The notes below the pieces were generated by a model. That model saw only the letters and a list, made by a program, of their open reading frames with translations, did not search any database and was not told the origin of the DNA. Position numbers and translations under genes: made by a program. A stretch of 64,000 nucleotides of DNA from Heptranchias perlo (Eukaryota), in assembly GCF_035084215.1 (NCBI RefSeq), contig NC_090348.1, positions 44,578,001-44,642,000 on the forward strand. Reading direction: 5' to 3'. Of the stretch, positions 1 to 64,000 are shown in pieces; position 1 is the stretch's first letter, and each line of letters begins with the position of its first letter.

Positions 1-614
1 CAGAAAACTTATCCAGCTTGTTCTTAATTTATCTACTTCCTGTCAGGTTTCATATCATTTCAGCTACAGCAATATTAAAAGACATTCTCCCTCCCCTCCC
101 AGCCCAGCCGCTCCAACACACTGTTCCGTGACTGAGAGACAAACGGAGAACTTCAGGGGCATTCGGGGCTGTTTTTAGTTCCAGAGATGCACAGAGTTGC
201 CTCCAGAGGAGGTTTCTCTCAGTCCCACCAGAACACAGCCGTTCCCAGCGCCAGTGGATGTCCTCGGCCACAAGGCAATACTGCTCTAGACCTTCACACA
301 ACTATGCACGTGCAAGATTACACTCGGAGCAGTGGAGAGGAGCAGAGCTGCCTACTACTGTGAGCGTAGAACAGAGCTGCTGGTTCATGTGTACGTAGAG
401 CAGCGGGTTAATGTAGATTCCACAGTACTTGGAGCCCCAGCATATTATTTATCGTATTATTCAATTTGAAGCAGATCTGTAATATAAAAGGGTTTGGGTA
501 GGGGTGGGTTTAAAGAGAGGGGTATGAACCGAACCTTCCACAATTATAACCAGCCAATGCTCCAATGTGCGTCAAAGGGTATTCCACCATGGGAGTCATC
601 ATCTGCAAACTGGT

Positions 615-692
615 TGTCCTATCCCACTGTCCTATCCCACTGTCCTATCCCACTGTCCTATCCCACTGTCCTATCCCACTGTCCTATCCCAC
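615..692. repeat. 13-bp tandem repeat x6 (single unit in copy B)
   Basis: (TGTCCTATCCCAC)6. Confidence 0.95.
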
Positions 693-1522
693 TTAAAATA
701 AGAGCCACTCGATCACGACCAGGGGCAGGATTTCTGGCCACTTTCCTCTTTGCTAACCCAGGGCTCATAAGCCGATCAGTTCAGCTCGAATGCCACACCG
801 GATGAGATCAGCCAGTCCCGCATGGATCGGGAATGGAATCTGGGATCCCCGCTGGTCAGTACGGTTCAGCTACTCAGTGGATATAAAAACTTACTGAGTC
901 ATCAGACCTGGCAGCGCGGGCAATTCCACCCAGGGCTGACGCGCTTTTAAACAAAATGATGAGAAACTGAAAACTCCTCACCAGATGGCAACGCAATTAA
1001 TGGAATTGGGATTACACAAAACCGGGAACGGTGGGAAAACGGACTGAATTAAACACATGGCAACGGAGGTCAGGGTAAAGGAGCTGTCATTTTCACCTGC
1101 GACCAGAACACAGCCAGCCCCACAGGAGTACGGAAAGAAAGCACCTTTCGCAATCACTCCCTTTGGTTCACAATCAAACACCAAGGATTCCGAGAGAAGA
1201 TTCATGTGTATTTTTCTCTATCTGGTGGGGTGGGTGGGGGACTCCCGGGCAGACGGACCTGAAACCGGGCAGGAATCAGGAAGTGGGGAAGAGAGGTGGG
1301 GGTGAGCCCAGCAAGGCTTCCTCACAGTGGCACGGTGGGGGGGGGGTCAGGAAGGTCCCTGGCCTTCTCGTCTCCCGTGGCGCACCGCACTGGGACTCCC
1401 ACCGTGCGACAGGCTTCCTGGTCAGTCCCACAGTCCTGCTCATGACAGCAATAACCAGGGCTGCTTGAAATTCCAGTGCTCCTTCACCGTTGGTTTTCTG
1501 CAGTCGGTCCCAAGCCTACTTT

Positions 1523-3236
1523 TAGAATCATAGAATCATAGAAGTTTACAACATGGAAACAGGCCCTTCGGCCCAACATGTCCATGTCGCCCAGTTTATA
1601 CCACTAAGCTAGTCCCAATTGCCTGCACTTGGCCCATATCCCTCTATACCCATCTTACCCATGTAACTGTCCAAATACTTTTTAAAAGACAAAATTGTAC
1701 CCGCCTCTACTACTGCCTCTGGCAGCTCGTTCCAGACACTCACCACCCTTTGAGTGAAAAAATTCCCCCTCTGGACCCTTTTGTATCTCTCCCCTCTCAC
1801 CTTAAATCTATGCCCCCTCGTTATAGACTCCCCTACCTTTGGGAAATGATTTTGACTATCTACCTTATCTATGCCCCTCATTATTTTATAGACTTCTATA
1901 AGATCACCCCTTAACCTCCTACTCTCCAGGGAAAAAAGTCTCAGTCTATCCAACCTCTCCCTATAAGTCAAACCATCAAGTCCCGGTAGCATCCTAGTAA
2001 ATCTTTTCTGCACTCTTTCTAGTTTAATAATATCCTTTCTATAATAGGGTGACCAGAACTGAACACAGTATTCCAAGTGTGGCCTTACTAATGTTTTGTA
2101 CAACTTCAGCAAGACATCCCAACTCCTGTATTCAATGTTCTGACCAATGAAACCAAGCATGCTGAATGCCTTCTTCACCACCCTATCCACCTGTGACTCC
2201 ACTTTCAAGGAGCTATGAACCTGTACACCTAGATCTCTTTGTTCTTTAACTCTCCCCAATGCCCTGGCCCGATTCGATCTACCAAAATGCATCACCTCAC
2301 ATTTATCTAAATTAAACTCCATCTGCCATTCATCGGCCCACTGGCCCAATTTATCAAGATCCCGTTGCAATCCTAGATAACCTTCTTCACTGTCCACAAT
2401 GCCACCAATCTTGGTGTCATCTGCAAACTTACTAACCATGCCTCCTAAATTCTCATCCAAATCATTAATATAAATAACAAATAACAGCGGACCCAGCACC
2501 GATCCCTGAGGCACACCGCTGGTCACAGGCCTCCAATTTGAAAAACAAGCCTCTACAACCACCCTCTGTCTTCTGTCGTCAAGCCAATTTTGTATCCAAT
2601 TGGCTACCTCACCTTGGATCCCGTGAGTTTTAACCTTATGTAACAACCTACCATGCGGTACCTTGTCAAAGACTTTGCTAAAGTCCATGTAGACCACGTC
2701 TACTGCACAGCCCTCATCTATCTTCTTGGTTACCCCTTCAAAAAACTCAATCAAATTCGTGAGACATGATTTTCCTCTCACAAAACCATGCTGACTGTTC
2801 CTAATCAGTCCCTGCCTCTCCAAATGCCTGTAGATCCTGTCTCTCAGAATACCCTCTAACAACTTACCCACTACAGATGTCAGGCTCACCGGTCTGCAGT
2901 TCCCAGGCTTTTCCCTGCCGCCCTTCTTAAACAAAGGCACAACATTTGCCACCCTCCAATCTTCAGGCACCTCACCTGTAGCTGTCGATTCAAATATCTC
3001 TGCTCGGGGACCCGCAATTTCCTCCCTAACCTCCCATAACGTCCTGGGATACATTTCATCAGGTCCCGGAGATTTATCGACCTTGATGCGCGTTAAGACG
3101 TCCAGCACCTCCCTCTCGGTAATATGTACACTCCTCAAGACATCACTATTTATTTCCCCAAGTTCCCTAACATCCATGCCTTTCTCAACCGTAAACACCG
3201 ATGTGAAATATTCATTTAGGATCTCACCCATCTCTT
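1523..3236 (-). mobile_element. CR1 LINE, 5'-truncated, RT domain and 3' end with open frame
   Basis: ORF 1609..3327 contains [32 protein letters not shown] and FADD. (ATTCTATG)n tail at about 1523-1542. Confidence 0.95.
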
Positions 3237-4019
3237 GTGTTTCTCTTGCCAATTTTCTCCGTTCCACGCTGAAGATACAGTCCAATCCGGGTCCCCCCCC
3301 CGCCAGCTCAAGGACCCTGCCCAGCATTTACTCGGTGGCTTTGACGGTGATTCCAGGGGGGCGGGGTCATCATGGCCATGGCCAAGCCCGACCCTGTCCG
3401 CACGTGGACTCCCAGTACGAGGAATGGGAATCCTGGCCGCCTTTCCCCCTCCACAACCCGGGAGCACTGAGGCCTATCGCAGCCCTGGCTGGGATCAGTT
3501 ACTCACTGATACACCCAGCTGGTCCTCTGGGGAAGTCTACACCATCTCATCTGTTGACACGGGAAGGCTTTCCTTTTTTTTGTTGCAAAATATAAAATAT
3601 GGCAAAAACTTCCCTCACAGGTTCAATGGGTAAAAGCTATGAACGCCTTGGGACATTTTACTACCTTAAAGGCACTATATAAACGCAAGATCAGGGACGC
3701 CCCAGATTTCTATGATCTGTGCCGAGCTACAGCGACAGTGCGGGGGGGCAAACCTGTACCCGGTGACCCAGAGACTGGGGGAGGGGAGCAGAATAAGTCA
3801 AAGGTCACAGTGCTCGTTGCCATCCCGGCTACAAAGAGCACAGATTTGGCCGAGGTGTGGACAGCATCGGGGCTGATCGTAATATCACCCACGGAGGAAT
3901 AGCTCTCAACACTCACTGTCAACGGCTCACGCAGTAAAGAATGGCACTCGATTGAGGCACCCGAGGGCCACGGACATTTGCGGAACAGCCACCCCAGCTC
4001 GGGTCAGTGTCTTAACAAT

Positions 4020-4445
4020 GTCAGCCGTGGTTCGGTGGTAGCACTCGCGCCTCGGAGTCAGAAGGTTGTGGGTTCAAGTCTCACTCCAGAGACTTGAGCA
4101 CAAAATTTAGGCTGACACCCCCAGTGCAATACTGAGAGAGTGCTGCATTGTCAGAGATGCTGTCTTTCGGATGAGGCATTAAGCTGAGGCCCCGTCTGCT
4201 CTCTCGGATGGATGTAAAAGATCCCCAGGCACTATTTTGAAGAGCAGGGGAGCTCTCCCAGTGTCCTGGCCAATATTTATCCCTCAACCAACATCATTAA
4301 AACAGATTATTTTGTCGGTATCACATTGCTGTTTGTGGGACCTTGCCCTGCACAAAATGGCTGCCACGTTGCCCATATTACAACAGTGACTACACTTCAA
4401 AGAGTATTTCAAAAAGGCACGATATAAATGCAAGTTCTTTCTTTC
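4020..4445 (+). mobile_element. tRNA-headed Deu-domain SINE (SacSINE1-like); duplicate at 48711-49136
   Basis: A/B boxes (GGTTCAAGTC), central GCTGTTTGTGGGA..TGGCTGCC..CAGTGACTACACTTCAAA, L2-like tail. Confidence 0.8.
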
Positions 4446-4579
4446 TTACTGTCAGGCGAGATGGGGAAAACGGGAACATGGTTACAAACCCATAATGGGG
4501 ATTTTAGAGATACCAGTGAACGTCAAATATTGATCCCAATGGTTAGATTCCACCCCACCTCCCCTCCGTTTCTACGTAC

Positions 4580-8921
<4,342 letters not shown>

Positions 8922-9029
8922 TCAGTAAAGAATAAACCGGATTCGAGGAGTTTCCCAAAAGCAGCAAAAAGGCGGGAGGGAGGGAGGGAGTGGAGGGCCC
9001 GCCCGCCTCAACAGGCCCAGTGGTCGGGC

Positions 9030-9506
9030 CCCCGGGCCCCACACCCCCGGGCGGCGCACCCGACACCCCCGGGCGGCGCACCCGACACCCCCGGGCGGCG
9101 CACCCGACACCCCCGGGCGGGGCACCCGACACCCCCGGGCGGGGCACCCCACACCCCCGGGCGGCGCACCCCACACCCCCGGTAACCCCGGGCTCCCCGG
9201 ACCCTCCGATCCCCGGGCCTCAGATCCCCGGTAACTCCGGTCCCCGGACCCCCGGACCCTCCGATCCCCGGACCCCCGGACCCTCCGATCCCCGGACCCC
9301 CGGGCCCTCCGATCCCCGGACCCCCGGGCCCTCCGATCCCCGGACCCCCGGTAACCCCGGGCCCTCCGATCCCCGGACCCCCGGTAACCCCGGGCCCTCC
9401 GATCCCCGGACCCCCGGGCCCTCCGATCCCCGGACCCCCGGTAACCCCGGGCCCTCCGATCCCCGGACCCCCGGTAACTCCGATCCCCGGACCCCCGGTA
9501 ACTCCG
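9030..9506. repeat. GC-rich compound minisatellite in TMEM209 intron 1; variant at 53031-53487
   Basis: 21-bp CACCCCCGGGCGGCGCACCCG-type units and 18/24/33-bp CCGATCCCCGGACCCCCGG-type units. Confidence 0.95.
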
Positions 9507-9528
9507 GCCGCCGCATTCATTCACTCAC

Positions 9529-9640
9529 CGACCCGCTCCGCCGCCACCGGAAATACAATGACCTACTTCCGCTAACGTACGTCATCTCGCTTGACGTCGG
9601 CAAAGATTTTTAAAAACTGGACGCGGGAAATTCATAACGC
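9529..9640 (-). promoter_or_regulatory. TMEM209 copy A CpG-island promoter and non-coding exon 1
   Basis: Donor TCG/GTGAGT at 9528. ETS-like CCGGAAAT 9547-9554 and ACTTCCG 9565-9571; CRE-like TACGTCA 9578-9584 and TGACGTC 9592-9598; E2F GCGGGAAA 9623-9630. Confidence 0.7.
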
Positions 9641-11672: not shown

Positions 11673-12375
11673 CGTTCACACGAGAGGACACCACCCACCA
11701 GGTGCATGGTTCATACTCCTGTGACTCGGCCAACGTTGTCTACCTCATACGTTGCAGGAAAGGATGCCCCAGAGCATGGTACATTGGCGAGACCATGCAG
11801 ACGCTGCGACAACGGATGAACGGACACCGCGCAACAATCGCCAGACAGGAGGGTTCCCTCCCAGTCGGGGAACACTTCAGCAGTCAGGGACATTCAGCCA
11901 CCGACCTTCGGGTAAGCGTACTCCAAGGCGGCCTTCGAGACACACGACAACGCAAAATCGTCGAGCAGAAATTGATAGCCAAGTTCCGCACCCATGAGGA
12001 CGGCCTCAACCAGGATCTTGGGTTCATGTCATGCTACACGTTACCCCACCAGCGAACAAATGTTATCTGTTTTTAATATAACGGGTCATTTGCTGTCTTT
12101 TCTATGTTTCTGCCTCTCTATCTCTGTTTTTTTTTGGTGGTTTGTATATTCGGAGACCTTGTAGGTAACACCTGTCTGTCTGCACACTGATTGCCTTGGC
12201 AACGGGCAGTTGAAAGGACTGTCTGTAATCACCAGGTATTGTTCTGTGATTTATAAATGCGAGAGGTTCGAGGATTTCATTTCCACAACATTCACCTGAG
12301 GAAGGAGGAAGCCTCCGAAAGCTTGTGAATTTCAAATAAAATTGCTGGACTATAACTTGGTGTTGTAAAATTGTT
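11673..12375 (+). mobile_element. Penelope-like element fragment (GIY-YIG endonuclease plus pseudo-LTR)
   Basis: ORF 11702..12076 NVVYLIRC..C...YIGET..LRQRMNGHR...GLN. Flanked by the 10-bp direct repeat TTCAGTTCTG (11663-11672, 12376-12385). Confidence 0.9.
12290..12330 (+). ncRNA. Minimal type I hammerhead ribozyme motif (Penelope-associated)
   Basis: ATTCAC-CTGAGGA-A-GGAGG(AAG)CCTCC-GAAA-GCTT-GTGAAT: 6-bp stem I, 5-bp stem II, core boxes, palindromic AAGCTT in place of stem III. Confidence 0.75.
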
Positions 12376-12914
12376 TTCAGTTCTGGGCACCACACTTCAG
12401 GAAGGATATATTGGCCTTGGAGGAGTTACAGTGCAGATTCACCAGAATGATACTGGGCTTAGAGGGTTAAATTATGAGGACAGGTTGCATAAACTTGGCT
12501 TGTATTCCCTTGAATATAGGAGATTGAGAGGTGATCTAACCTTAGTGTCTAAAATGATAAAGTGATTTGATGGGGTAGATACAATGAAACGATTTCCTCT
12601 GCACTCCTTCCAAACACTGCTCCAGCTGAGATCAGGTAAGTCAGCACAGAACAGGCTTTGAAACAACAACCTCCCTGGTCTGAATAGGTCAGTAATTCAC
12701 TGGGCAGTGCATTAACCTAGTGAGCTATCTGTACACTTCCCCTCAGCCCACAAAAGAATATGTTTTATAAATATCCACAAAGAAGAAATAGAGTTGAATA
12801 ATTGGTTTAACTGGATGTTGCCAAAGCATAGCTTTTCAATCCTGCAATTTATTTGCATATCATCAGATTATTAAATTGTTAAACATTTTTATTCAAAATC
12901 ATCAGGACTTTGCT

Positions 12915-13060
12915 GGAAAAACAAACAAGGTATTGATATAAGCAGCCTCAATCTGCGTGGGAATTATTCCACGTGGCACCATTTCTACAGATTAATGCTA
13001 GTCATTATCTTTGTCTTTATCTGGTGACTCCCTGGCCGCCTCTCAGCTTTAAATATAGCC
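12915..13060 (+). promoter_or_regulatory. CPA copy A acinar-type proximal promoter
   Basis: TATA-like TTTAAATATA 13048-13057; RBPJ/TC-box CGTGGGAA 12956-12963 with E-box CACGTG 12970-12975; GATA TTATCT at 13005 and 13017; FoxA-like AAACAAACA at 12919. Confidence 0.65.
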
Positions 13061-13092
13061 CGGCACATTGTTCCTTTTCACAAGGCTTCACC

Positions 13093-13157
13093 ATGAGGAC
13101 GCTTTTCGTTTTCTCAGCTCTGCTGGTGGCCGTTTGCACCCAGAGAAGTTTCGAGGG
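13093..13157 (+). CDS. CPA copy A exon 1 (signal peptide)
   Basis: Kozak-like ttcaccATG; [22 protein letters not shown]; donor GTGAGT. Confidence 0.93.
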
Positions 13158-16100
13158 GTGAGTTACTACCTTGTGGCGAGATTTCTTTTCAAGCAGGTTC
13201 CTCGATATTAGTTTGTCCGATCCGACTCAAGGGTGGAGGGTCTTTATGAGAACCTCTTGGTGTGGAACTGGACAGGTCCCAGATCTGACCCTCGCCCTTT
13301 GTTGAGTTGGCTGACCTCAGCCGGTGCAGAGCGCAGAAGGCATGACAGTTGACCTCTGTTGCCCTGGGCTCGGGAGGGTGGGAAACTCATCCAGGGCTGT
13401 TCCCCATGCCCAAAACACATGATCAATGGATACCTAGTTGAGATATTCCGGCGATCGTGGTGCGTCAGCACCTTGGAGAGAATGGGAAAGAATCGTTCTT
13501 TTGATGGCTAATCGTAGACTGTGGTGGGGCTAACGGACCTTACAACTTTGGACTCTAGGTTCAAACCTTGTCCAAACTGATGGGGTGAAGATCACATCTC
13601 TCTCCCTCCAGTAGGTGTTGTCTACCAAATGACTTTGGGCTTAGTCTCAACTCCAGTTCCTCATGGGCGAGAATCACCCATCGTAAAACTGCCCATAATT
13701 TGGCATTAAAATTAGCGATGAAGGAAGCCACAGGTTAGCTGGTGTGGGAAGTGGAAAATTGTCACACTGGAGCAGTAGGGAGTGGTCCTGTCAGGGTGGG
13801 TCAGAGTAGAGAGAGCTTTACTCTACTATATCTGACCTGGGAGTTCCCCATACTGACACGGGGAACCTGAAATGGAAAGTGTTCCATTTCCCCACCACTA
13901 ACATCTCACCATTTTTAATTTTAAGAAGTGCACACACATACAATTTGAGCACTTTATATAAAGCCAACACACTAAGGGACCGATCCTGAGATTTACACTC
14001 CATCCCTTGTGTTCATCCCAACACTCGCTGTGAAGGCACTCTCTTGAAGAATGACCCAGGAACCAGACCTCAGCAGGAGTCAGCTCCTTCATAAGAAGTG
14101 GGCAGGAGAGAAGGGAGAAATGGTGGCAAAAATAAGTGCCAAAATATATTTGTTCTCTTTAATTGTTCCCAGAGGTTGTGATGCATCCTTGCAGATCAAA
14201 ATGATCCCAGAAAGTTCTCTCATAGCTTCACAAAGTATCTTTCAATATCTCTCCTCTCATCAGGTGCCTGCGCTGCACCAGCTCAGGATCAAACTCTCAC
14301 CTCTGAAGCTTGTAGGTTCGAAGCTTCATTCCAGAGGCTTGAGCACAAAATCGAGGCTGACTCTCCCAGCGCACTGTCGTTTTTCAGATGAGACGTTAAA
14401 CTGAGGCCCTGTCTGCCCTCTCAGGTGGACCTAAAAGATCCCATGGCACTATTTGGAAGAAGAGCAGGGGAGTTCTCCCCTGGTGTCCTGGACAATATTT
14501 ATCCCCCAACCAACATCAAAAACAGATTGATCTGGTCATTTATTTCATTGCTTTTTTGTGGGATCTTGCTGTGTGTAATTTGGTTGCCGCGTTTCCTACA
14601 TTACAGCAGTGACTACACTTCAAAAAGTAGTTCATTGGCTGTAAAGCACTTTGGGATCTTCTGAGGCCATGAAGGGTGCTGTATAAATGCAAGTCCATTC
14701 TTTATTAATAATTAATAAACGGCCCAACAACTAAACATTGATACTGACACTTGGTGTGTTTGCAGGGACCAGGTCCTACGGCTGACGCCCACAGATGAGG
14801 AACAGGTCAGCCTGGTGATGTCCCTGGAGGAACATGACCATCTCCAGGTAAGTCAGAACGTAAAACTGCATCTCTGACCATAAACCACAGAGGGAACTAC
14901 AAACACCCGGGGAACGCTTCATCACTCAACCTCCCATGGCATTGCTCAAATATAGTCCGCAGCCTGCACCACCGTTGTGATATTTAGCTGTTAATCTGTC
15001 CTGTCCCTTTCAGGCCACCGTTTTAACTGGGCTAATCCAGGTTTTGTAGCTACTTAGAAATTGCTGGGACCAATCAGAGGGCAGTTCGAACTGGTTGTAA
15101 ATTTCAAGCTCCAGGTCAACGAATGGCTTTCTCCGCAACCCCACCCCACCTTCTTTTCAAAAAAAAAATTTGCTTTGCCTCTGTAGCAAAGTGTGACATC
15201 TGGTGTGTGACGGACACGGGCTGTGGGGGATCGACCGCCCGTTATACACCCCGCCCCGATTTTCCTTCCCGTTGTGTCTCACGTCGCTGAAGTAGAATGA
15301 AGCGGAGGCCAGAGGACTCACAGTGTGAAACCGTCACGTTAAATCCATCGAGAGATGTTCAGCAGCTGATCACTAGGAGCTGGCCGAAAAATCACACGCG
15401 GTGATTGGCGACAGCGTGTGGGAACATCTGGTTTTCGGGCGACATCATCCTTCTGATGACGTCACCAGATGCTACGTTCAGCTGTACACTAATCGACAGG
15501 TGTTTGCCAGCAAACTCGGCCTATATTATGTCGATTATGTATTACAGATATATTATATGTTAAATATAAACGTAATTTTTCTCCTCTTTCTCTCTCTCTA
15601 GCTTGATATCTGGCGCAGTCCCGTCAAGTCTGACCTCATTATAGATGTCCATGTTCCACAGGGCAGTCTTCAGTCTTTCAAAGTGTTTCTGGAGCACAGC
15701 GGGATTCAGTATTCGGTAATGATTGAAGACCTGCAGGTGCGTCAACAACTAAACCAAACCATGCCAGGTAGAGGGGCTACAATTGGGCCCAGTGTACAGG
15801 GCTGGAGGGGGAGATATTCAGCCAGGTTTCCCACTCTTAATTTTATTCCAGCGGCCCCTGCTGGAGGTGTGTGTGACAGGGGGTGTGTGTGTGACAGGGG
15901 GTGTGTGTGTGACAGGGGGTGTGTGTGTGACAGGGGGTGTGTGTGTGACAGGGGGGGTGTGTGTGACAGGGGGTGTGTGTGTGACAGGGGGTGTGTGTGT
16001 GACAGGGGGTGTGTGTGAGCACGTGCAAGTGGTTATGTACACAAGCTGTGTGTAAGGGTGTGTGTAAGGGTGTGTGTAAGCATATGTGAGTATGTTTAGG

Positions 16101-28100: not shown

Positions 28101-28164
28101 AACCGCCCAGGAGACCTGGCTGGCGATGAAGACGATCATGGAATACATTGGCGACCGCTTGTGA
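13093..28164 (+). CDS. CPA2: Preprocarboxypeptidase A (M14A; CPA1/CPA2-like), complete, 11 coding exons, 418 aa
   Basis: join(13093-13157,14766-14847,15602-15736,18014-18112,20790-20891,22107-22208,23919-24029,24701-24791,25075-25274,26880-26964,27980-28164). All introns GT-AG; 1257 nt open frame. Signal peptide, prodomain, HARE (H69/E72), WRKTR (R127), DPNRN (N144/R145), IHSYSQ (H196), Y248 and FELRD (E270) are present. I255 indicates A-type specificity. CPA2 orthology is tentative (C210/C244, 11 exons, adjacency to TMEM209). Confidence 0.95.
13503..13830 (+). mobile_element. LF-SINE-like element; duplicate at 57547-57874
   Basis: Blocks GGTTCAAA, AAATGACTTTGGG..AGTCTCAACTCCAGTTCCT, AAAAC..AATTTGGCATTAAAATTAGC and GTGGTCCTGTCAGGG follow the order of the LF-SINE consensus as recalled. 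Confidence 0.45.
14270..14703 (+). mobile_element. Deu-domain SINE; duplicate at 58314-58747
   Basis: Same family as 4020. Confidence 0.8.
14766..14847 (+). CDS. CPA copy A exon 2
   Basis: tttgcAG; [27 protein letters not shown]; GTAAGT. Confidence 0.93.
15602..15736 (+). CDS. CPA copy A exon 3
   Basis: [45 protein letters not shown]; AG/GT boundaries. Confidence 0.93.
15866..16017. repeat. 18-bp minisatellite x8 (x7 at 59911-60043)
   Basis: (GTGTGTGTGACAGGGGGT)n. Confidence 0.95.
16020..17446. repeat. GT-rich low-complexity tract and 28/30-bp minisatellite; shorter at 60046-61032
   Basis: (GGGGGTGTATTTGTGGGCTGTGTAT[AT])-type units. Confidence 0.95.
17800..17985 (+). mobile_element. Deu-domain SINE fragment; duplicate at 61386-61571
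   Basis: Same family as 4020. Confidence 0.7.
18014..18112 (+). CDS. CPA copy A exon 4 (activation site)
   Basis: [33 protein letters not shown]. Confidence 0.93.
18500..18715. repeat. ~32-bp degenerate minisatellite; duplicate at 62088-62303
   Basis: GTTAGATTGGTTAGTGAGTATGTCCATTACTA-type units. Confidence 0.85.
18787..19525 (-). mobile_element. CR1 fragment with internal deletion; duplicate at 62375-63133
   Basis: [11 protein letters not shown] and FADD peptides plus CR1 3' end. Confidence 0.88.
20508..20634 (+). mobile_element. L2 3' UTR fragment
   Basis: CACCTGTCCTAATATCTCC...GGCGCTATATAAATGCAAGTTGTTGTTG. Confidence 0.8.
20790..20891 (+). CDS. CPA copy A exon 5
   Basis: [34 protein letters not shown]. 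Confidence 0.93.
21260..21545 (-). mobile_element. CR1 3' fragment
   Basis: Same 3' UTR motif as 7284. Confidence 0.8.
22107..22208 (+). CDS. CPA copy A exon 6 (zinc ligands)
   Basis: [34 protein letters not shown]. Confidence 0.95.
22770..23511 (+). mobile_element. Probable solo LTR (742 bp) in CPA intron 6
   Basis: TGTGGAAAAC...GTTTTCGACA termini (9/10 inverted match); TATAAAT 23344; ATTAAA 23435; internal 45-bp tandem x4; interrupts a CT-rich tract; no TSD seen. Confidence 0.65.
23919..24029 (+). CDS. CPA copy A exon 7
   Basis: [37 protein letters not shown]. Confidence 0.94.
24234..24415 (+). mobile_element. Deu-domain SINE 3' half
   Basis: Same family as 4020. Confidence 0.75.
24416..24660. 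repeat. 33/31-bp minisatellite, ~7.5 copies
   Basis: CTGTCCTCACGGGGACACTGTAATACTCGTGCT. Confidence 0.92.
24701..24791 (+). CDS. CPA copy A exon 8
   Basis: [30 protein letters not shown]. Confidence 0.95.
25075..25274 (+). CDS. CPA copy A exon 9
   Basis: [15 protein letters not shown]...[27 protein letters not shown]. Confidence 0.95.
25804..26232 (+). mobile_element. Deu-domain SINE
   Basis: Full head (GTGGCTCAG..GGTTCGAGTCCC) and body. Confidence 0.8.
26551..26747. repeat. 57-bp tandem units with an internal 26-bp inversion
   Basis: 26580-26605 is the exact reverse complement of 26637-26662. Confidence 0.9.
26880..26964 (+). CDS. CPA copy A exon 10
   Basis: [28 protein letters not shown]. 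Confidence 0.94.
27458..27900 (+). mobile_element. Deu-domain SINE
   Basis: Same family as 4020. Confidence 0.8.
27980..28164 (+). CDS. CPA copy A exon 11 (terminal)
   Basis: [61 protein letters not shown]. Confidence 0.95.
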
Positions 28165-28209
28165 ACTGGCATGAATGTTTGACCCCCTCCCTCCCTCATC
28201 TCACAATGA

Positions 28210-28215
28210 AATAAA
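28210..28215 (+). terminator. CPA polyadenylation signal
   Basis: AATAAA 45 nt after the stop codon. Confidence 0.8.
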
Positions 28216-28280
28216 GATCAGAAAGGGACAATCCTGGCAGATACCTGATGTTCAATCCTTACAGACTGATGGGTAGGTTT

Positions 28281-52920
<24,640 letters not shown>

Positions 52921-53509
52921 TCAGTAAAGAATAAACCGGATTCGAGGAGTTTCCCAAAAGCAGCAAAAAGGCGGGAGGGAGGGAGGGAGTGGAGGGCCCG
53001 CCCGCCTCAACAGGCCCAGTGGTCGGGCCCCCGGGCCCCACACCCCCGGGCGGGGCACCCCACACCCCCGGTAACCCCGGGCTCCCCGGACCCCCGGTAA
53101 CCCCGGGCTCCCCGGGCCCTCCGATCCCCGGTAACTCCGGTCCCCGGACCCCCGGACCCTCCGATCCCCGGACCCCCGGTAACCCCGGGCCCTCCGATCC
53201 CCGGACCCCCGGGCCCTCCGATCCCCGGACCCCCGGGCCCTCCGATCCCCGGACCCCCGGGCCCTCCGATCCCCGGACCCCCGGTAACCCCGGGCCCTCC
53301 GATCCCCGGACCCCCGGTAACTCCGGGCCCTCCGATCCCCGGACCCCCGGTAACCCCGGGCCCTCCGATCCCCGGACCCCCGGTAACTCCGATCCCCGGA
53401 CCCCCGGTAACTCCGATCCCCGGACCCCCGGTAACTCCGATCCCCGGACCCCCGGGCCCTCCGATCCCCGGACCCCCGGTAACTCCGGCCGCCGCATTCA
53501 TTCACTCAC

Positions 53510-53621
53510 CGACCCGCTCCGCCGCCACCGGAAATACAATGACCTACTTCCGCTAACGTACGTCATCTCGCTTGACGTCGGCAAAGATTTTTAAAAACTG
53601 GACGCGGGAAATTCATAACGC
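53510..53621 (-). promoter_or_regulatory. TMEM209 copy B CpG-island promoter and non-coding exon 1
   Basis: Same motif cluster as 9529-9640; donor at 53509. Confidence 0.7.
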
Positions 53622-55662
53622 GTGGCCCCGCCCACCCCCGCCCACTTACCCCCGGGACCCCGCCCACTGACCCCCGGGACCCCGCCCACTGACCCCCGGG
53701 CCCCGCCCACTAACTCGAGGACTCAGGAAAACACCAGCTGGCCCCGAGCCCCGCCCACTCGCCCTGGGAAACGCCCACTGGCCGCAGGACACGCCCACTG
53801 TGGCGACAGGACACGCCCACTGACCACAGGACACGCCCACTGACCCCAGGCTATTCCCCTCACTCCCCCAACTCAGTGGAACGCCCTCCACCCCCTGACC
53901 CTGGGACATGCTCACTGACCACAGCCGACTCCCCTCCACCCTCCCCCACTGGGCGGGTCACCTCCCCACACTGACCCAAGGCCACTACGTCCCTCTGTCC
54001 CCTGTGAGGAGACTGCCCCAATTACCCCGAGACCCCTCTCGCTGACCCCAGGCCTGCTCCCCACTGACCCCAGGCCACACCTCCTTGCACTGACCCTGGG
54101 ACATCTAAACCCCGACTGACCCCAGGCCACTTGCCCCTCACTGTCCCCCGGGCCACCACCCCAAGCACCAGGCCATGCCCTGGAACCCCAACCCATCATC
54201 CCCCTCCTCACGATGCCAGCCAGCTTACCCGCTGACCATGGGCCAGCAACCCACACATGAGGACACTCTACCCACCGTCCCAGGGCTAACCCACCCATTG
54301 ACTGGACCGCACCATCTGCTGACCAGCCCATTCAAGCCAAGACAACTTTACGTAGGAAGTTTCCATTCTAAAGTCCGCATCGGAATTCTAATGGTAAATG
54401 TTGAGAGGAAATGCATCAGATTTTTAACATATATTGCTGATGAACTGGAAGAATCTCTCCAGAAGCAGACCAGGGCTGGAAGTCCCCAGCTCGTAATTAA
54501 GTGATTCTTTTAACCCCAGTGCATTGGATAAATGTTTTAGAAAATACAATTTTGTTTGTTATTTTACTTTTTCTGCCAGTAACAGCAAATGAACTGTAAA
54601 TGGAGAAATGAAATAAAATACTGGAGAGCAAAGGAACATAGGAACTGGAGGAGGCCATTCAGCCCCTCGAGGTTGTTCCGCCATTCAATTAGATCATGAC
54701 TGATCTTAAGGCTATAGATAAAACATTACTTATTGGTAAATTGCTAAAAAAAAGAATAGTATTTCAATCTCTTATTTGCCTTTAAGAAAAATGTAAAGGA
54801 AAGTTAATAGATTTATATCGACTCATTCCTGTCCTCGGGACATCCAAACAGCGTCAGCAAGCAACACCCGCTAACCAATAACCTGCTCACCAGCTCAGGT
54901 TCTGCCAGAACCTCTGGGCTCCAGACCTCATCACAGTCTTGATCAAGGCACAGATGCAAGGGCTTAATGCTAGAGGAGGGGTGAGAGTGGCCGCCCCTCA
55001 ACATCAAGGGAGAATTTGACCAAGTACGAGACCAAGGAGCCCTCCGAAAAATGAGGTCAATGGAGGTCATGGGGAAACCCTCCAGTGGCTGGGGTCACAG
55101 GGGAAGATGGCCGTGATTGTCGGAGGTCAATCAAAGCAACAGGAGGAGGCCATTCGGCCCCTTTAACCCGTTCTGCCATTCAATTCGATCATGGCTGATC
55201 TGTACCTCAACTTCATTTGGAGCCTTTGCTCCATATCCCTTGATACCTTATTCAACAAAAATCGACCAATCTCAGTTGTGAAAATTTCAATTGACCCAGA
55301 ATCCAACGCCTTTTAGGGGAGTGAGTTTCAGATTATTTTTTGTACCTGTGCACTAGCTTTTAGTGATTTGTGCACATTGACACCCAAATCCATTTGTTCA
55401 TCCACAGCTCCTAGTCTCTCCCCGTTAAGAAAATATTTCAATTTGTCTTTCTCGGATCCAAAGTGGGTGACCTCACACTTCCCCACATTGAACTCCATCT
55501 GCCACAGTTTTGCCCACTCACTTAGTCTGTTGATGTCCCTCTATCATTTCCTGCTCCCATCCACACAACTTACTGTTGGCTGGAATACAAATGTGAGGAA
55601 GTGATGCTTCAGTTATACAGAGCCTTGGTCGGACCCCATCTGGAGCGCTGCGTTCAGTTCTG

Positions 55663-56365
55663 CGTTCACACGAGAGGACACCACCCACCAGGTGCATGGT
55701 TCATACTCCTGTGACTCGGCCAACGTTGTCTACCTCATACGTTGCAGGAAAGGATGCCCCAGAGCATGGTACATTGGCGAGACCATGCAGACGCTGCGAC
55801 AACGGATGAACGGACACCGCGCAACAATCGCCAGACAGGAGGGTTCCCTCCCAGTCGGGGAACACTTCAGCAGTCAAGGACATTCAGCCACCGACCTTCG
55901 GGTAAGCGTACTCCAAGGCAGCCTCCGAGACACACGACAACGCAAAATCGTCAAGCAGAAATTGATAGCCAAGTTCCGCACCCATGAGGACGGCCTCAAC
56001 CGGGATCTTGGGTTCATGTCACGCTACACGTTATCCCACCAGCGAACAAATGTTATCTGTTTTTAATATAACGGGTCATTTGCTGTCTTTTCTATGTTTC
56101 TGCCTCTCTATCTCTGTGTTTTTTTGGTGGTTTGTATATTCGGAGACCTTGTAGGTAACACCTGTCTGTCTGCACACTGATTGCCTTGGCAACGGGCAGT
56201 TGAAAGGACTGTCTGTAATCACCAAGTATTGTTCTGTGATTTATAAATGCGAGAGGTTCGAGGATTTCATTTCCACAACATTCACCTGAGGAAGGAGGAA
56301 GCCTCCGAAAGCTTGTGAATTTCAAATAAAATTGCTGGACTATAACTTGGTGTTGTAAAATTGTT
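55663..56365 (+). mobile_element. Penelope-like element fragment, duplicate copy
   Basis: ORF 55692..56066; same TSD. Confidence 0.9.
56280..56320 (+). ncRNA. Minimal hammerhead ribozyme motif, duplicate copy
   Basis: Identical to 12290-12330. Confidence 0.75.
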
Positions 56366-56904
56366 TTCAGTTCTGGGCACCACACTTCAGGAAGGATATA
56401 TTGGCCTTGGAGGAGTTACAGTGCAGATTCACCAGAATGATACTGGGCTTAGAGGGTTAAATTATGAGGACAGGTTGCATAAACTTGGCTTGTATTCCCT
56501 TGAATATAGGAGATTGAGAGGTGATCTAACCTTAGTGTCTAAAATGATAAAGTGATTTGATGGGGTAGATACAATGAAACTATTTCCTCTGCACTCCTTC
56601 CAAACACTGCTCCAGCTGAGATCAGGTAAGTCAGCACAGAGCAGGCTTTGAAACAACAACCTCCCTGGTCTGAATAGGTCAGTAATTCACTGGGCAGTGC
56701 ATTAACCTAGTGAGCTATCTGTACACTTCCCCTCAGCCCACAAAAGAATATGTTTTATAAATATCCACAAAGAAGAAATAGAGTTGAATAATTGGTTTAA
56801 CTGGATGTTGCCAAAGCATAGCTTTTCAATCCTGCAATTTATTTGCATATCATCAGATTATTAAATTGTTAAACATTTTTATTCAAAATCATCAGGACTT
56901 TGCT

Positions 56905-57050
56905 GGAAAAACAAACAAGGTATTGATATAAGCAGCCTCAATCTGCGTGGGAATTATTCCACGTGGCACCATTTCTACAGATTAATGCTAGTCATTATCT
57001 TTGTCTTTATCTGGTGACTCCCTGGCCGCCTCTCAGCTTTAAATATAGCC
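56905..57050 (+). promoter_or_regulatory. CPA copy B acinar-type proximal promoter
   Basis: Same motifs as copy A at offset +43990. Confidence 0.65.
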
Positions 57051-57082
57051 CGGCACATTGTTCCTTTTCACAAGGCTTCACC

Positions 57083-60000
57083 ATGAGGACGCTTTTGGTT
57101 TTCTCAGCTCTGCTGGTGGCCGTTTGCACCCAGAGAAGTTTCGAGGGGTGAGTTACTACCTTGTGGCGAGATTTCTTTTCAAGCAGGTTCCTCGATATTA
57201 GTTTGTCCGCTCCGACTCAAGGGTGGAGGGTCTTTATGAGAACCTCTTGGTGTGGAACTGGACAGGTCCCAGATCTGACCCTCGCCCTTTGTTGAGTTGG
57301 CTGACCTCAGCCGGTGCATAGTGCAAGAGGGCATGACAGTTGACCTCTGTTGCCCTGGGGCTCAGGAGGGTGGGAAACTCATCCAGGGCTGCTCCTTCTA
57401 AAAGATGCGCAGGACGCTGAGAGGATCAGGTTTGGTTGTGATGTTCCCCATGCCCAAAACACATGATCAATGGATACCTAGATGAGATATTCTGGCGATC
57501 CTGATGCGTCAGCACCTTGGAGAGAATGGGAAAGAATCGTTCTTTTGATGGCTAATCGTAGACTGTGGTGGGGCTAACGGACCTTACAACATTGGGCTCT
57601 AGGTTCAAACCTTGTCCAAACTGATGGGGTGAAGATCACATCTCTCTCCCTCCAGTAGATGTTGTCTACCAGATGACTTTGGGCTTAGTCTCAACTCCAG
57701 TTCCTCATGGGCGAGAATCACCCATCGTAAAACTGCCCATAATTTGGCATTAAAATTAGCGATGAAGGAAGCCACAGGTTAGCTGGTGTGGGAAGTGGAA
57801 AATTGTCACACTGGAGCAGTAGGGAGTGGTCCTGTCAGGGTGGGTCAGAGTAGAGAGAGCTTTACTCTACTATATCTGACCTGGGAGTTCCCCATACTGA
57901 CACGGGGAACCTGAAATGGAAAGTGTTCCATTTCCCCAGCACTAACATCTCACCATTTTTAATTTTAAGAAGTGCACACACATACAATTTGAGCACTTTA
58001 TATAAAGCCAACACACTAAGGGACCGATCCTGAGATTTACACTCCATCCCTTGTGTTCATCCCAACACTCGCTGTGAAGGCACTCTCTTGAAGAATGACC
58101 CAGGAACCAGACCTCAGCAGGAGTCAGCTCCTTCATAAGAAGTGGGCAGGAGAGAAGGGAGAAATGGTGGCAAAAATAAGTGCCAAAATATATTTGTTCT
58201 CTTTAATTGTTCCCAGAGGTTGTGATGCATCCTTGCAGATCAAAATGATCCCAGAAAGTTCTCTCATAGCTTCACAAAGTATCTTTCAATATCTCTCCTC
58301 TCATCAGGTGCCTGCGCTGCACCAGCTCAGGATCAAACTCTCACCTCTGAAGCTTGTAGGTTCGAAGCTTCATTCCAGAGGCTTGAGCACAAAATCGAGG
58401 CTGACTCTCCCAGCGCACTGTCGTTTTTCGGATGAGACGTTAAACTGAGGCCCTGTCTGCCCTCTCAGGTGGACCTAAAAGATCCCATGGCACTATTTGG
58501 AAGAAGAGCAGGGGAGTTCTCCCCTGGTGTCCTGGACAATATTTATCCCCCAACCAGCATCAAAAACAGATTGATCTGGTCATTTATTTCATTGCTTTTT
58601 TGTGGGATCTTGCTGTGTGTAATTTGGTTGCCGCGTTTCCTACATTACAGCAGTGACTACACTTCAAAAAGTAGTTCATTGGCTGTAAAGCACTTTGGGA
58701 TCTTCTGAGGCCATGAAGGGTGCTGTATAAATGCAAGTCCATTCTTTATTAATAATTAATAAACGGCCCAACAACTAAACATTGATACTGACACTTGGTG
58801 TGTTTGCAGGGACCAGGTCCTACGGCTGACGCCCACAGATGAGGAACAGGTCAGCCTGGTGATGTCCCTGGAGGAACATGACCATCTCCAGGTAAGTCAG
58901 AACGTAAAACTGCATCTCTGACCATAAACCACAGAGGGAACTACAAACACCCGGGGAACGCTTCATCACTCAACCTCCCATGGCATTGCTCAAATATAGT
59001 CCGCAGCCTGCACCACCGTTGTGATATTTAGCTGTTAATCTGTCCTGTCCCTTTCAGGCCACCGTTTTAACTGGGCTAATCCAGGTTTTGTAGCTACTTA
59101 GAAATTGCTGGGACCAATCAGAGGGCAGTTCGAACTGGTTGTAAATTTCAAGCTCCAGGTCAACGAATGGCTTTCTCCGCAACCCCCACCCCACCTTCTT
59201 TTCAAAAGAAAAATTTGCTTTGCCTCTGTAGCAAAGTGTGACATCTGGTGTGTGACGGACACGGGCTGTGGGGGATCGACCGCCCGTTATACACCCCGCC
59301 CCGATTTTCCTTCCCGTTGTGTCTCACGTCGCTGAAGTAGAATGAAGCGGAGGCCAGAGGACTCACAGTGTGAAACCGTCACGTTGAATCCATCGAGAGA
59401 TGTTCAGCAGCTGATCACTAGGAGCTGGCCGAAAAATCACACGCGGTGATTGGCGACAGCGTGTGGGAACATCTGGTTTTCGGGCGACATCATCCTTCTG
59501 ATGACGTCACCAGATGCTACGTTCAGCTGTACACTAATCGACAGGTGTTTGCCAGCAAACTCGGCCTATATTATGTCGATTATGTATTACAGATATATTA
59601 TATGTTAAATATAAACGTAATTTTTCTCCTCTTTCTTTCTCTCTAGCTTGATATCTGGCGCAGTCCCGTCAAGTCTGACCTCATTATAGATGTCCATGTT
59701 CCACAGGGCAGTCTTCAGTCTTTCAAAGTGTTTCTGGAGCACAGCGGGATTCAGTATTCGGTAATGATTGAAGACCTGCAGGTGCGTCAACAACTAAACC
59801 AAACCATGCCAGGTAGAGGGGCTACAATTGGGCCCAGTGTACAGGGCTGGAGGGGGAGATATTCAGCCAGGTTTCCCACTCTTAATTTTATTCCAGCGGC
59901 CCCTGCTGGAGGTGTGTGTGACAGGGGGTGTGTGTGTGACAGGGGGTGTGTGTGTGACAGGGGGTGTGTGTGTGACAGGGGGTGTGTGTGTGACGGGGGG

Positions 60001-61698
60001 GTGTGTGTGACAGGGGGTGTGTGTGTGACAGGGGGTGTGTGTGAGCACGTGCAAGTGGTTATGTACACAAGCTGTGTGTAAGGGTGTGTGTAAGGGTGTG
60101 TGTAAGCATATGTGAGTATGTTTAGGTGGCTATGTGTGAGTAGGGGTGTGTGTAACTGTATGCGAATGGGGGCATGTGGGTGTGTATTAAGATATGCAAG
60201 TGGAGGTGTGAGTGGGAGCATTTGTGTGTGTTTGGGGGAGGTGTATGAGAGTAGGGGTGTGTGTAAGTATATGCGAGTGTGTGTAGGCGGGTACGAGGGT
60301 GGGGATGTGCATGTGGAAGTGTATGCACTTGGGTGTGAGTGTAGGGCGGTGTGTGTAATTGTATGTGGGTGTGGGGGGTGTATTAGGGTATTAAGGCTGG
60401 GTGTGTGTGATGGCTTGTGTGTGTTTGGGGGTGTATGTAGGGTACTTGAGTTTGTAGGTGTGTGTTTTAAGGTATGTGGGGTGTGTGTATGTATATGTGA
60501 GTAGGAGTGTGTGTGTGGATATATGTGGAGTATCTGTATGTGGGGTGTGTGTTTGAGGGTGTATTTGTGGGCCATGTATATGGGGGTGTATTTGTGGGCT
60601 GTGTGTTTGGGGGTGTATTTGTGGGCTGTGTGTTTGGGGGTGTATTTGTGGGCCGTGTATATGGGGGTGTATTTGTGGGGTGTGTGTATGGGGGTGTATT
60701 TGTGGGGTGTGTGTATGGGGATGTATTTGTGGGCTGTGTGTATGGGGGTGTATTTGTGGGGTGTGTATGGGGGTGTATTTCTGGGCTGTGTATGGGGGTG
60801 GATTTGTGGGCTGTGTATGGGGGTGTATTTGTGGGCCGTGTATATGTGGGTGTATTTGTGGGCCGTGTATATGGGGGTGTATTTGTGGGCTGTGTATGGG
60901 GGTGTATTTGTGGGCCGTGTATATGGGGGTGTATTTGTGGGCTGTGTATGGGGGTGTATTTGTGGGCTGTGTATGGGGGTGTATTTGTGGGCCGTGTATA
61001 TGGGGGTGTATTTGTGGGCCGTGTGTATGGGGAGGTTAGGTGGGGTCAGGTGAGTACAGGATTAGGCTGGTTTGTGATGCTCCCAGTATTGGGTAACCTG
61101 CTGATATTCTCTGGAGGGGCTGATATACGAGGACTATCCCCATGGGCAGAGTACTAGGGGGTGCCTAATGCCCCGGGAACCGTGTCCCAACATGGGGTCA
61201 GAAGAGGAAGTGAAGGGAGAAAATAGGTGGGAGAGAAAGCAAAGTATGTGACTGAGGCCCTGCGAACCCTTATCCTGTCAATGGAGAGTCTACCTTTCGA
61301 TATAAATTAGCCAGTTAGTCTGATCTTTCTTCCTGAATTGGACAGTGGAGAGAAGGAGGATGTGTTGAATATAATTAAACACATTAGCGATATTTATCTA
61401 CTTTTCCCCTCCCAATCAACATCACTAAAACATTATCTAGTTATTTATCTCATTGCTGTTTGTGGGATCTTGCTGTGTGCAAACGGACTGCTGCGTTTCC
61501 TTACATTACCAACAGTGACTACACTTGATTGGCTGTGAAGGGCTATGAGATGTCCCGAGAGTGTGAGAGTTTCTGTCTAAAGCCGAGTTTTACCTGCAGG
61601 TGATGATTGACGATGAGAGAGCGGAACTGGAGCGGACGACCATGATGGAGCGCACCGCCTCCAACTTCAACTACGGCAGCTACCACACCCTGGAGGAG
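57083..61698 (+). CDS. CPA2: Carboxypeptidase A copy B, exons 1-4 (continues beyond window)
   Basis: join(57083-57147,58810-58891,59647-59781,61600-61698). Same as copy A except F5L (TTC>TTG) in the signal peptide. Confidence 0.92.
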
Positions 61699-64000
61699 GT
61701 ACGTACCGAGCGGTTTTACTGGGAAGGAGTTGCTCCACATTTGCCCGCTGCGCGCTGACAGCACTGCGACTCGCCCTGCCCGTGTTGAGGGAGGGAAACC
61801 TTTGGGTTCCGCTGTGGTTTGAGTGACTCCGCTGGGGACAGAGGTAAGGTAATAACCAGCGGATACAACGCTGGCACCAACCAGCTCCCGACGCTCTTGG
61901 TCAGTGTGTGAAGACCTTGCAGGTACAGTAGATAAAAGCACGAGAGAGGATGGGACAGGGAAAGAGCACTGGCCCATCAGGCACCTCCCTTCCACAGACC
62001 GTTCAATCTCACTCCTCCTCAGAGATACTTCCAGCAAAATTCCAGCCCACCCATCTAACCTTACTCTCATCACACACCCACATCCACTTACCTTGGTTAG
62101 TATGACAGTTTTGAGTTGTCCATTACTCGTTAGATTGGTTAGTGAGTATATCCATTACTAGCTAGATTGGTTAGTATGTCCAGTTCAAGTTAGATTGGCT
62201 AGTGAGTATGTCCATTACTAGTTAGATTGGTTAGTTAGTATGTCCATTACTAGTTAGGTTGGTTACTGAGTATGTCCAGTGCTAGTTAGATTGGCTGGTA
62301 AGTAGCAATCAAATTGGTAAAAAATGTTTTCTTTTTAGTTTTCAATATTTTTATTTCTGACAGATGTCAAATTAGAGACATAGAGTTATACAGCACGGAT
62401 AGAGGCCCTTCGGCCCATCGTGTCCGTGCCGGCCATCAAGCCCTGTCTACTCTAATCCCATATTCCAGCATTTGGTCCGTAGCCTTGTATGCTATGGCAT
62501 TTCAAGTGCTCATCCAAATGCTTCTTGAATGTTGTGAGGGTTCCTGCCTCCACAACCCTTTCAGGCAGTGAGTTCCAGACTCCAACCACCCTCTGGGTGA
62601 AAAAGTTCTTTCTCAAATCCCCTCTAAACCTCCCGCCTTTTACCTTGAATCTATGCCCCCTTGTTATAGAACCCTCAACGAAGGGAAAAAGCTCTTATAT
62701 TCTGTGCCTCGGCTAATAAAGGCAAGTATCCCATATGCCTTCTTTACCACCTTATCTACCTGTTCCGCCGCCTTCAGGGATCTGTGAACTTGCACACCAA
62801 GATCCCTCTGACCCTCTGTCTTGCCTAGGGTCCTCCCATTCATTGTGTATTCCCTTGCCTTGTTAGTCCCTCCAAAGTGCATGACCTCGCAATTTTCCGG
62901 GTTAAATTCCATTTGCCACTGTTCCGCCCATCTGACCAACCCATCTATATCGTCCTGCAGACTGAGGCTATCCTCCTCGCTATTTACCACCCTACCAATT
63001 TTTGTATCATCAGCGAACTTACTGATCATACCTTTTACATTCATATCCAAGTCGTTAATGTAGACCACAAACAGCAAGGGACCCAGCACCGATCCCTGTG
63101 GTACCCCACTGGCCACAGGCTTCCAGTCACAAAAACAAAATAGAATGTCAATTGCCCAGATCCGATGGCAGGATTTGAACTCTGACTGTGCATTATTAGT
63201 CCAGGCCTTATTACTTTTGAAAACCTTTAGAAAAGATCTCCCGGCCCTTATGAAGAATTTCGTTGGATGCAAAGCTCTTTTATTTTTGGTTTGGACGGGG
63301 CTGGGAGTGAGGAGAATATTTTTTTTATTGCATTAAACATGGGGAGTAGCCGTCCCTAATGGGATAGTGAGTGGATGCAGTGAGTAGCTGAGTGGTACAA
63401 ACTAGAAAGGACCTGGTGTGTCCCGGGCCTGCACTGGGTTAGTGTATCTCAGCTGGGCGAGTGGTTACCGCACAGTGCCCCTGGATTGAGGAGAGGAATC
63501 TCAGCCAGCATTCCCACTCCTGATTACAATCCAACATCACTCCTTCTCCCTGAAGCGGAAGCGGATATGGCCGGATGTGGCTGTGATGACCCCAGCAGTC
63601 TGTGCTCTCTTGTCCCGCTGTTACGATGTCCCTTGATTTACCTCATCTGCTCTCTTACTCTGTCCAAACTAGGTGCTGATCTACACTATGCTTTTTCTCA
63701 ATCAGTGTTTTTCATTCTCGTGTTATTTCCTCTCCTGTTCCTCCTGAGATCCAAAAACATTTTCCGACACACTCTTCCTCCCCCGACATCCTCACTGTGT
63801 TGAAATCAAGACTTATCGCACGGTTTTCTGCTCTAACTCATTTTGTCCCAGATTTTCACGTCTCTCCCTTCCTCCTACAATCTACAAGTTTTTAAAACTG
63901 GCTCTCACCACCTCCTCACCAGGTCACAAAGTGGGTTTTAGGTAAAGGCAGCCCCTTTGGCCCAGTTCCCCTCGTCCTTAAAGGAGACCAATCCTACCAT

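Follow-up and report, generated by a model that had tools for sequence, protein, structure and literature searches.

The question raised by this locus is whether a shark genome carries two genuine copies of a digestive-type carboxypeptidase A (CPA) gene side by side and, if so, whether the two have begun to differ. The window, a stretch of 64,000 nucleotides of Heptranchias perlo (assembly GCF_035084215.1, contig NC_090348.1; G000:C27:44578001-44642000 in the coordinates used here), belongs to an assembly of 3.25 Gb and was examined with 100 kb of flank added on each side, 264 kb in all; positions are those of the window, negative numbers lying to its left. It contains parts of two tandem units, each with a copy of the nuclear-pore gene TMEM209 and a CPA gene, in the order TMEM209(-) CPA(+) TMEM209(-) CPA(+). 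The duplication is judged to be real, and the CPA copy next to the junction (CPA-A) has acquired derived residues in its S1' pocket for which retention by selection is put forward here at even confidence. The four gene models are identical to four database proteins, named Heptranchias perlo 'carboxypeptidase A1-like' and 'TMEM209-like'. No published report on the locus was found in the open-access literature.

Two tandem units and the junction between them

The units and the sequence that joins them were delimited as follows.

-16244 to 28347 (G000:C27:44561756-44606347), unit A, 44,592 bp, of which 1 to 28347 lies in the window
28348 to 28465, plus strand, junction insert of 118 bp, from a single-copy site at about -28654 to -28538
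28466 to 73175 (G000:C27:44606466-44651175), unit B, 44,710 bp, of which 28466 to 64000 lies in the window

A self-comparison of the window aligned 1-20392 with 44754-64000 in five long blocks of 97.7-98.9% identity, with 167 substitutions and 34 indel events across 19,126 aligned bases. The repeat and its two-gene layout had been proposed in a first-pass annotation of the window, and alignment and gene models agree on both. More units outside the window had also been suggested as a possibility; none was found within the 264 kb, this assembly holding exactly two, and the genome-wide searches returned two near-identical places for a TMEM209 exon and 13 matches for CPA exon 11, two of them near-identical and the next best 71% identical. 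The single-copy state in other sharks was taken from protein cluster lists. Adjacency of TMEM209 and CPA in sharks is suggested by the neighboring locus tags chiPu_0008541 and chiPu_0008542; the human TMEM209 gene lies head to head with the CPA2/4/5/1 cluster.

The source of the junction insert is located 12.3 kb left of the left breakpoint and is its sole other match in the genome (83%). The insert has an internal inversion of approximately 25 bp, about four substitutions relative to the source and a 3-bp microhomology (AGA) at the right joint, and the junction sequence occurs once genome-wide. There are no N bases between the copies, the sole gap in the 264 kb being at 86277, 13 kb past unit B. 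A single contig of run X5, 729 bases long, spans 28209-28937 without any difference and thereby includes both joints, and a contig of the DNA run X1 (28349-28848) covers the right joint. (Note that all runs are from one sample, that the DNA runs could be the very reads used for the assembly and hence not independent, and that X5 and X7 were classed as RNA solely from spliced joints, no run being on record as RNA. Run X6 was without cover on CPA exon 11 and run X7 without cover at the junction; neither was used there.)

The contig depth summed over X1 and X4 was 9.1 in unique flank, 18.8-26.2 in shared segments (7 of 7 at 2.1-2.9 times the flank) and 9.3-13.7 in copy-specific segments (6 of 6 at 1.0-1.5 times the flank), whereas a false duplication would predict about 9 for shared and about 4.5 for copy-specific segments; that these depths are contig means from one sample, and not copy numbers per tool, weighs against the reading given here. 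An end-to-end placement of two haplotypes of one locus by the assembler is unlikely, and is given very little credence, because an RNA-run contig bridges the junction and shared depth is 2.1-2.9 times that of the flank rather than equal to it. Such an error would fit the parts of the units that differ by just 0.2-0.3%, close to the allelic level, the possible origin of the DNA runs from the assembly's own reads, and the fact that no single contig spans a whole unit. It is opposed by the gapless sequence, by a junction with a novel templated insert, spanned by sequence from another library of this sample, and by the supposed 'allele' having to be without the last exon of TMEM209. The accessible part of PMC9516828 gives a gap between the copies, half depth and unsupported joints as the marks of false duplications; none of these three checkable marks was seen at the locus, and the explanation is to this extent largely refuted already. 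The first-pass annotation had itself named half depth and an unspanned junction as grounds for giving up a true tandem duplication with a digestive-type CPA gene; neither was found, and that claim stands. Regarding the junction-side segments, their depth was 12.0-13.7, or 1.3-1.5 times the flank, with the outer copies at 1.0-1.1 times; as it is not below the flank, presence of the junction on both haplotypes is favored, and one haplotype might carry a third unit.

The carboxypeptidase copies and their S1' pockets

The features of the two CPA genes are listed below.

13093 to 28164, plus strand, CPA copy A (junction side), 11 exons, 418 amino acids, identical to P0002
27980 to 28164, plus strand, CPA-A exon 11, with six of the seven coding differences, five of them within 62 bp (27995-28056)
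28165 to 28347, plus strand, CPA-A 3' region, retaining AATAAA and ending at the right breakpoint (28347), 161 bp shorter than in copy B just downstream of the stop
57083 to 72823, plus strand, CPA copy B, exons 1-4 in the window, exon 11 at 72639-72823, 418 amino acids, identical to P0036

Both copies have 11 exons with canonical splice sites and an intact open reading frame of 418 codons, and both match Peptidase_M14 (PF00246, 350/353 bits) and the activation propeptide (PF02244, 75 bits). The zinc ligands H69, E72 and H196 are kept in both, as are R127, N144, R145, Y248 and E270 (residue numbers are those of bovine mature CPA, anchored on Q249, position 5 excepted). Seven coding sites differ between the copies. 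One, F5L, is in exon 1, and the other six are in exon 11 (A/B: V/G253, F/Y259, T/A268 and M/L301, plus two synonymous); exons 2-10, together 1,007 bp long, have none, for which P is about 1e-4 under the mean rate. The clustering in exon 11 has P=6e-5, and the proteins differ at 5 of 418 residues (98.8% identity). The first-pass annotation had reported F5L as the only coding difference between the units. This holds inside the window, for CPA exons 1-4 and TMEM209 coding exons 1-4, but not beyond it, where exon 11 has its six substitutions (four amino-acid), and TMEM209 has four as well as the loss of its last exon.

Homologues were compared in an alignment of 143 proteins (150 identifiers minus 7 outside 300-480 amino acids), which left out P0001, P0010, P0032-35 and P0040-42. 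G253, Y259, A268 and M301 are present in 23 of 23 other chondrichthyan (shark, ray, chimaera) records from 21 species, so that three changes in mature CPA-A are derived (G253V, Y259F and A268T, in addition to L5F) and one in CPA-B (M301L). The pocket of CPA-B is ancestral and CPA2-type (M203, G253, I255, A268), from which CPA-A departs by V253 and T268, the latter being the CPA1-type residue. T268 is found in 14 of 15 mammalian CPA1 sequences, which vary at 253 (G/S/N); of 29 tetrapod CPA2 sequences, 28 have A268 and all have G253, the CPA1/CPA2 labels for these counts being taken by hand from record names. We take residue 268 itself to set the CPA1/CPA2 preference. Among solved structures, bovine CPA1 (PDB 1ARM/2V77) has T268 and human CPA2 (PDB 1AYE/1DTD) has A268. 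According to the available text of PMC9925722, positions 203, 207, 243, 247, 253 and 268, with 255, shape the pocket, and on this basis I255 predicts an A-type specificity for hydrophobic C-termini in both copies. The accessible portion of PMC6780499 describes CPA2 as preferring bulkier residues and CPA1 smaller ones; the portions at hand of PMC2945764, PMC13494187 and bioRxiv 10.64898/2026.03.10.710453 contain nothing on 253 or 268. A post hoc test of two changes falling on pocket sites gave P=0.005-0.03, depending on the site list.

A tree of 43 rows, unrooted and built with no outgroup, places the chondrichthyan genes on a third arm, separate from the clades of CPA1 and CPA2; CPA-A and CPA-B pair as sister sequences (100/99), the branch of A being the longer. 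An AlphaFold model of CPA-A from a 14-row alignment was uninformative and was not used (mean predicted local distance difference test score 54.7, below 50 across the pocket). Both exon 11 forms are present in the DNA runs X1 and X4 and in the RNA run X5, where the depth at exon 11 was 254 for the B-type and about 131 for the A-type (385 minus 254), with intronic contigs at 11-30. Expression of CPA transcripts in the catshark pancreas is reported in the part of PMC4362833 available.

Two further CPA-like loci lie tail to tail about 0.5 Mb upstream (G000:C27:44.04-44.10 Mb; L034-L039). The one on the plus strand has N253/A268; the one on the minus strand has L253/C268 and an in-frame stop in its exon 9 equivalent, and is probably a pseudogene. 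Gene conversion of exon 11 from these two paralogs was considered and rejected, as neither carries T268 or V253, and the genome search returned no closer paralog as a conversion donor (best other exon 11 match 71%).

The leading explanation is that CPA-A has been retained by selection for a narrower S1' pocket, which G253V and A268T are predicted to create and which would favor smaller C-terminal residues; such an early shift, echoing the CPA1/CPA2 split, is considered here as probable as its contrary. The outer CPA-B would keep the ancestral CPA2-type pocket for bulky residues and the inner CPA-A would move to a CPA1-type or narrower one, resulting in a division of labor between two enzymes like the one that bony vertebrates obtained through the CPA1/CPA2 split, and gene conversion with purifying selection would keep exons 2-10 identical with exon 11 diverging. 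Several observations weigh against this. CPA-A has the CPA2-type M203 and not L203 (L in 15 of 15 mammalian CPA1) and is no clean CPA1 mimic; none of 141 homologues has V253 (12 have T, which is beta-branched, at this site) and all 141 have tyrosine where CPA-A has F259, both of which fit damage equally. The ratio of non-synonymous to synonymous divergence (dN/dS) between the copies is 0.0051/0.0072, or about 0.7, with no formal signal of positive selection between them. The two synonymous changes within the 62-bp cluster are not explained by selection on amino acids and are not polarisable. Finally, introns close to the CPA end show no raised divergence (0.75%), compared with 1.3-1.6% at the TMEM209 end, and an escape of the unit ends from conversion fits the TMEM209 end only.

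Some of these points are shared with the main rival explanation, in which CPA-A is redundant and under relaxed selection, V253 and F259 being mildly damaging, the hits on the pocket chance, and the junction-side genes decaying passengers. The absence of V253 and of F259 from all 141 homologues, the dN/dS of about 0.7, a 3' region 161 bp shorter than that of CPA-B, an A-type RNA depth of about half the B-type and the two derived changes at conserved sites in the neighboring TMEM209-B would all suit it. Nevertheless we consider it unlikely, though well worth keeping in sight: exons 2-10 are without a single change (conversion could account for this), the reading frame and splice sites of CPA-A are intact and the gene is expressed, and A268T is the natural CPA1 state, not a random residue. 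A gain in dosage, the proposal of the first-pass annotation, with two equivalent genes raising output, neutral substitutions and a copy number that may vary between sharks, agrees with the expression of both copies, with 98.8% identical proteins and with the higher depth on the junction side (1.3-1.5 against 1.0-1.1 times the flank), which would allow one haplotype to carry a third unit; it is improbable given changes at pocket positions invariant in 23 of 23 chondrichthyan records, a divergence four times the allelic level and only two assembled units. That the exon 11 cluster entered CPA-A by one conversion from a diverged CPA donor absent from the assembly would explain five substitutions in 62 bp, two of them synonymous; yet no exon 11 elsewhere matches better than 71% and the paralogs on the same contig are without T268 and V253, and there is hardly any reason to prefer it. 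Returning to selection on the pocket, the fuller account, according to which the shark lineage independently replays the CPA1/CPA2 split, with selection driving the new copy to a small pocket via three changes in one exon and conversion keeping the rest identical, is tentative and on balance somewhat doubtful.

The pair resembles the bony-vertebrate CPA1/CPA2 pair in consisting of tandem paralogs adjoining TMEM209 with T versus A at S1' position 268. It differs in being independent, much younger and nested within the chondrichthyan clade, and in the residues of copy A, namely a retained M203 together with V253 and F259. The tandem CPO duplicates of fish and Xenopus, as described in the accessible text of PMC9925722, are likewise M14A tandem duplicates in which pocket residues and specificity diverge; the same text lists AEBP1, CPXM1, CPZ and CPO as frequently duplicated and explains CPO arrays by unequal crossing over, whereas the shark gene is a CPA with a non-homologous junction, a templated insert and an unchanged position 255. 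Elsewhere in the genome, at C7:83.63-83.71 Mb (L023-L033), another M14A gene forms a nested multi-unit segmental duplication free of N, its units offset by 15, 25.7 and 40.7 kb and 97-99% identical; three last exons and additional incomplete units are present. The C7 gene may be CPO-like.

The TMEM209 copies

The TMEM209 genes and a copy-specific insertion are located as follows.

4580 to 8888, minus strand, TMEM209 copy A, coding exons 1-4 in the window, continuing upstream of it, 563 amino acids (P0189)
-16502 to -16452, minus strand, last coding exon of TMEM209-A, just outside unit A
31471 to 52887, minus strand, TMEM209 copy B, 13 coding exons, the final one missing, 554 amino acids (P0052)
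30183 to 30293, minus strand, B-specific insertion of 111 bp with a 12-bp target-site duplication, absent from A

The left breakpoint falls inside the last intron of TMEM209, 208 bp from the last coding exon. TMEM209-A is complete, and its last intron is spliced in the RNA runs X5 (depth 212) and X7 (31). In TMEM209-B, eight intron codons followed by a stop replace 17 conserved residues; a housekeeping gene carried along whole, as the first-pass annotation implied, is thus not what is found, the carried TMEM209 being 3'-truncated. Over 1,637 shared coding bases the copies differ by T447N and L519F, both derived in B, and by two synonymous changes; among the 28 homologues examined, all 20 with a motif match at the first site have T447 and all 21 with one at the second have L519. 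The conserved C-terminal tail was found in 16 of the 28 homologues, 5 models stopping short, 6 being without a motif match and 1 different. TMEM209-B matches PF09786 with 446 bits over profile positions 9-557 of 571 and has the N-terminal transmembrane region. The outer genes of the locus, TMEM209-A and CPA-B, keep their native flanks and a mostly ancestral sequence, and most derived changes fall in the two junction-side genes.

A 1,064-base contig of X5 over the residual intron of TMEM209-B (30465-31500, 0 differences, depth 30) is consistent with read-through into this intron; weakly, X5 bin depth also appears to fall from about 30 at 31052-31500 to 1-2 at 29648-30115. The B-specific insertion resembles the 3' tail of the Penelope-like element of these units and adds, at 30269-30287, two AATAAA in TMEM209 sense that are not in A's intron, from which polyadenylation of the truncated transcript at the insertion may weakly be inferred. 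TMEM209-B would be a transcribed passenger under relaxed constraint.

In the accessible part of PMC12967149, overexpressed human TMEM209 1-548, which lacks the last 13 residues, forms foci sequestering Nup210. TMEM209-B is like this protein in that the extreme conserved C-terminus is gone and the transmembrane Nup210-binding region is kept. It differs in being natural, in missing 17 rather than 13 residues, in gaining 8 and in having an intact copy alongside; its RNA depth in X5 is about 30 compared with 212 (contig means).

Several other features of the TMEM209 genes and their surroundings were recorded. The intron after coding exon 11 is GC-AG in both copies (34075 in B). A GC-rich minisatellite in the first intron (9037-9507 and 53053-53488) differs between the copies in length and composition. 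A young insertion resembling a long interspersed element occupies a TMEM209 intron in both units (about 1530-3240 and 46220-47930) and matches at least 40 places in the genome at 94-98%. Between TMEM209 and CPA, both units have a Penelope-like GIY-YIG element (11676-12376 and 55666-56366), the match to the GIY-YIG profile being below the cut-off; inverted copies, 97-98% identical, are located at -21791 and -20629.

Origin, age and meaning of the duplication

Recombination between repeats was rejected as the cause, the breakpoint contexts being without shared homology. Replication-based template switching is an established class of mechanism, and is inferred here because the insert is templated, the right joint has a 3-bp microhomology and no repeat is shared at the breakpoints. 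One such event, including a brief switch to a template 12.3 kb upstream, would have made the junction, and a single non-homologous tandem duplication would have copied one whole CPA gene together with TMEM209 minus its last coding exon.

The units differ at 308 of 38,973 sites, or 0.79% (191 transitions, 117 transversions), with tandem repeats and four misaligned or inverted blocks masked (unmasked 0.92%). The divergence is patchy, ranging from 0.19% to 1.57% per 4 kb (chi2 80.6, df 10), and the low-divergence blocks are likely due to patchy homogenization by gene conversion, as judged from the sequences. A symmetric model with divergence raised at both ends was rejected, being true at the TMEM209 end only. 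Across runs, six single-nucleotide variants in 3.3 kb of unique flank give an allelic level of 0.18%, a figure that may be low as contigs drop variants, and the divergence between the copies is about four times this value. From these two values and from the B-specific insertion with its target-site duplication it follows that the pair is older than allelic difference. If the epaulette-shark mutation rate of 7e-10 per generation and the interval given in the available text of PMC10587355 apply, the age would be 3-56 million generations, to be read as an order of magnitude only.

The large copy-specific indels are usable as polymerase chain reaction markers for telling the copies apart; these are 5293-5977 (684 bp, A only), 33325-33738 (414 bp, B only) and, beyond the window, the expansion of a 33-bp repeat in B at 68087-69390. 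Two micro-inversions of approximately 25 bp with short flanking inverted repeats were observed, one between the copies (about -10500 versus 34580-34605) and one between the junction insert and its source.

The first-pass annotation had likened the locus to a recent copy-number variation of the amylase type. The divergence of 0.79% against about 0.18% between alleles, together with the post-duplication insertion and the micro-inversions, does not bear this out. The likeness to AMY1 copy-number variation lies in the tandem gain of a digestive enzyme gene; the shark has only two copies, and these are not near-identical at functional sites.

Tandem duplication with subsequent pocket divergence is already known in the M14A family, from CPO in the available text of PMC9925722 and from the history of CPA1/CPA2. 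It is usually seen long after the event; here the mature enzymes are four residues apart, which opens the first steps of a CPA1/CPA2-like split to assay by single swaps. For the databases, the two 'CPA1-like' and two 'TMEM209-like' NCBI models of this shark represent neither an assembly error nor equivalent copies. If the replayed split is true, the CPA pair would be a four-residue natural experiment on the splitting of S1' specificity, and the same event would have left a tolerated, transcribed TMEM209 without the C-terminus whose loss mislocalizes Nup210 in human cells. As a natural counterpart close to the human Nup210-sequestering mutant, TMEM209-B tests whether this tail matters in vivo.

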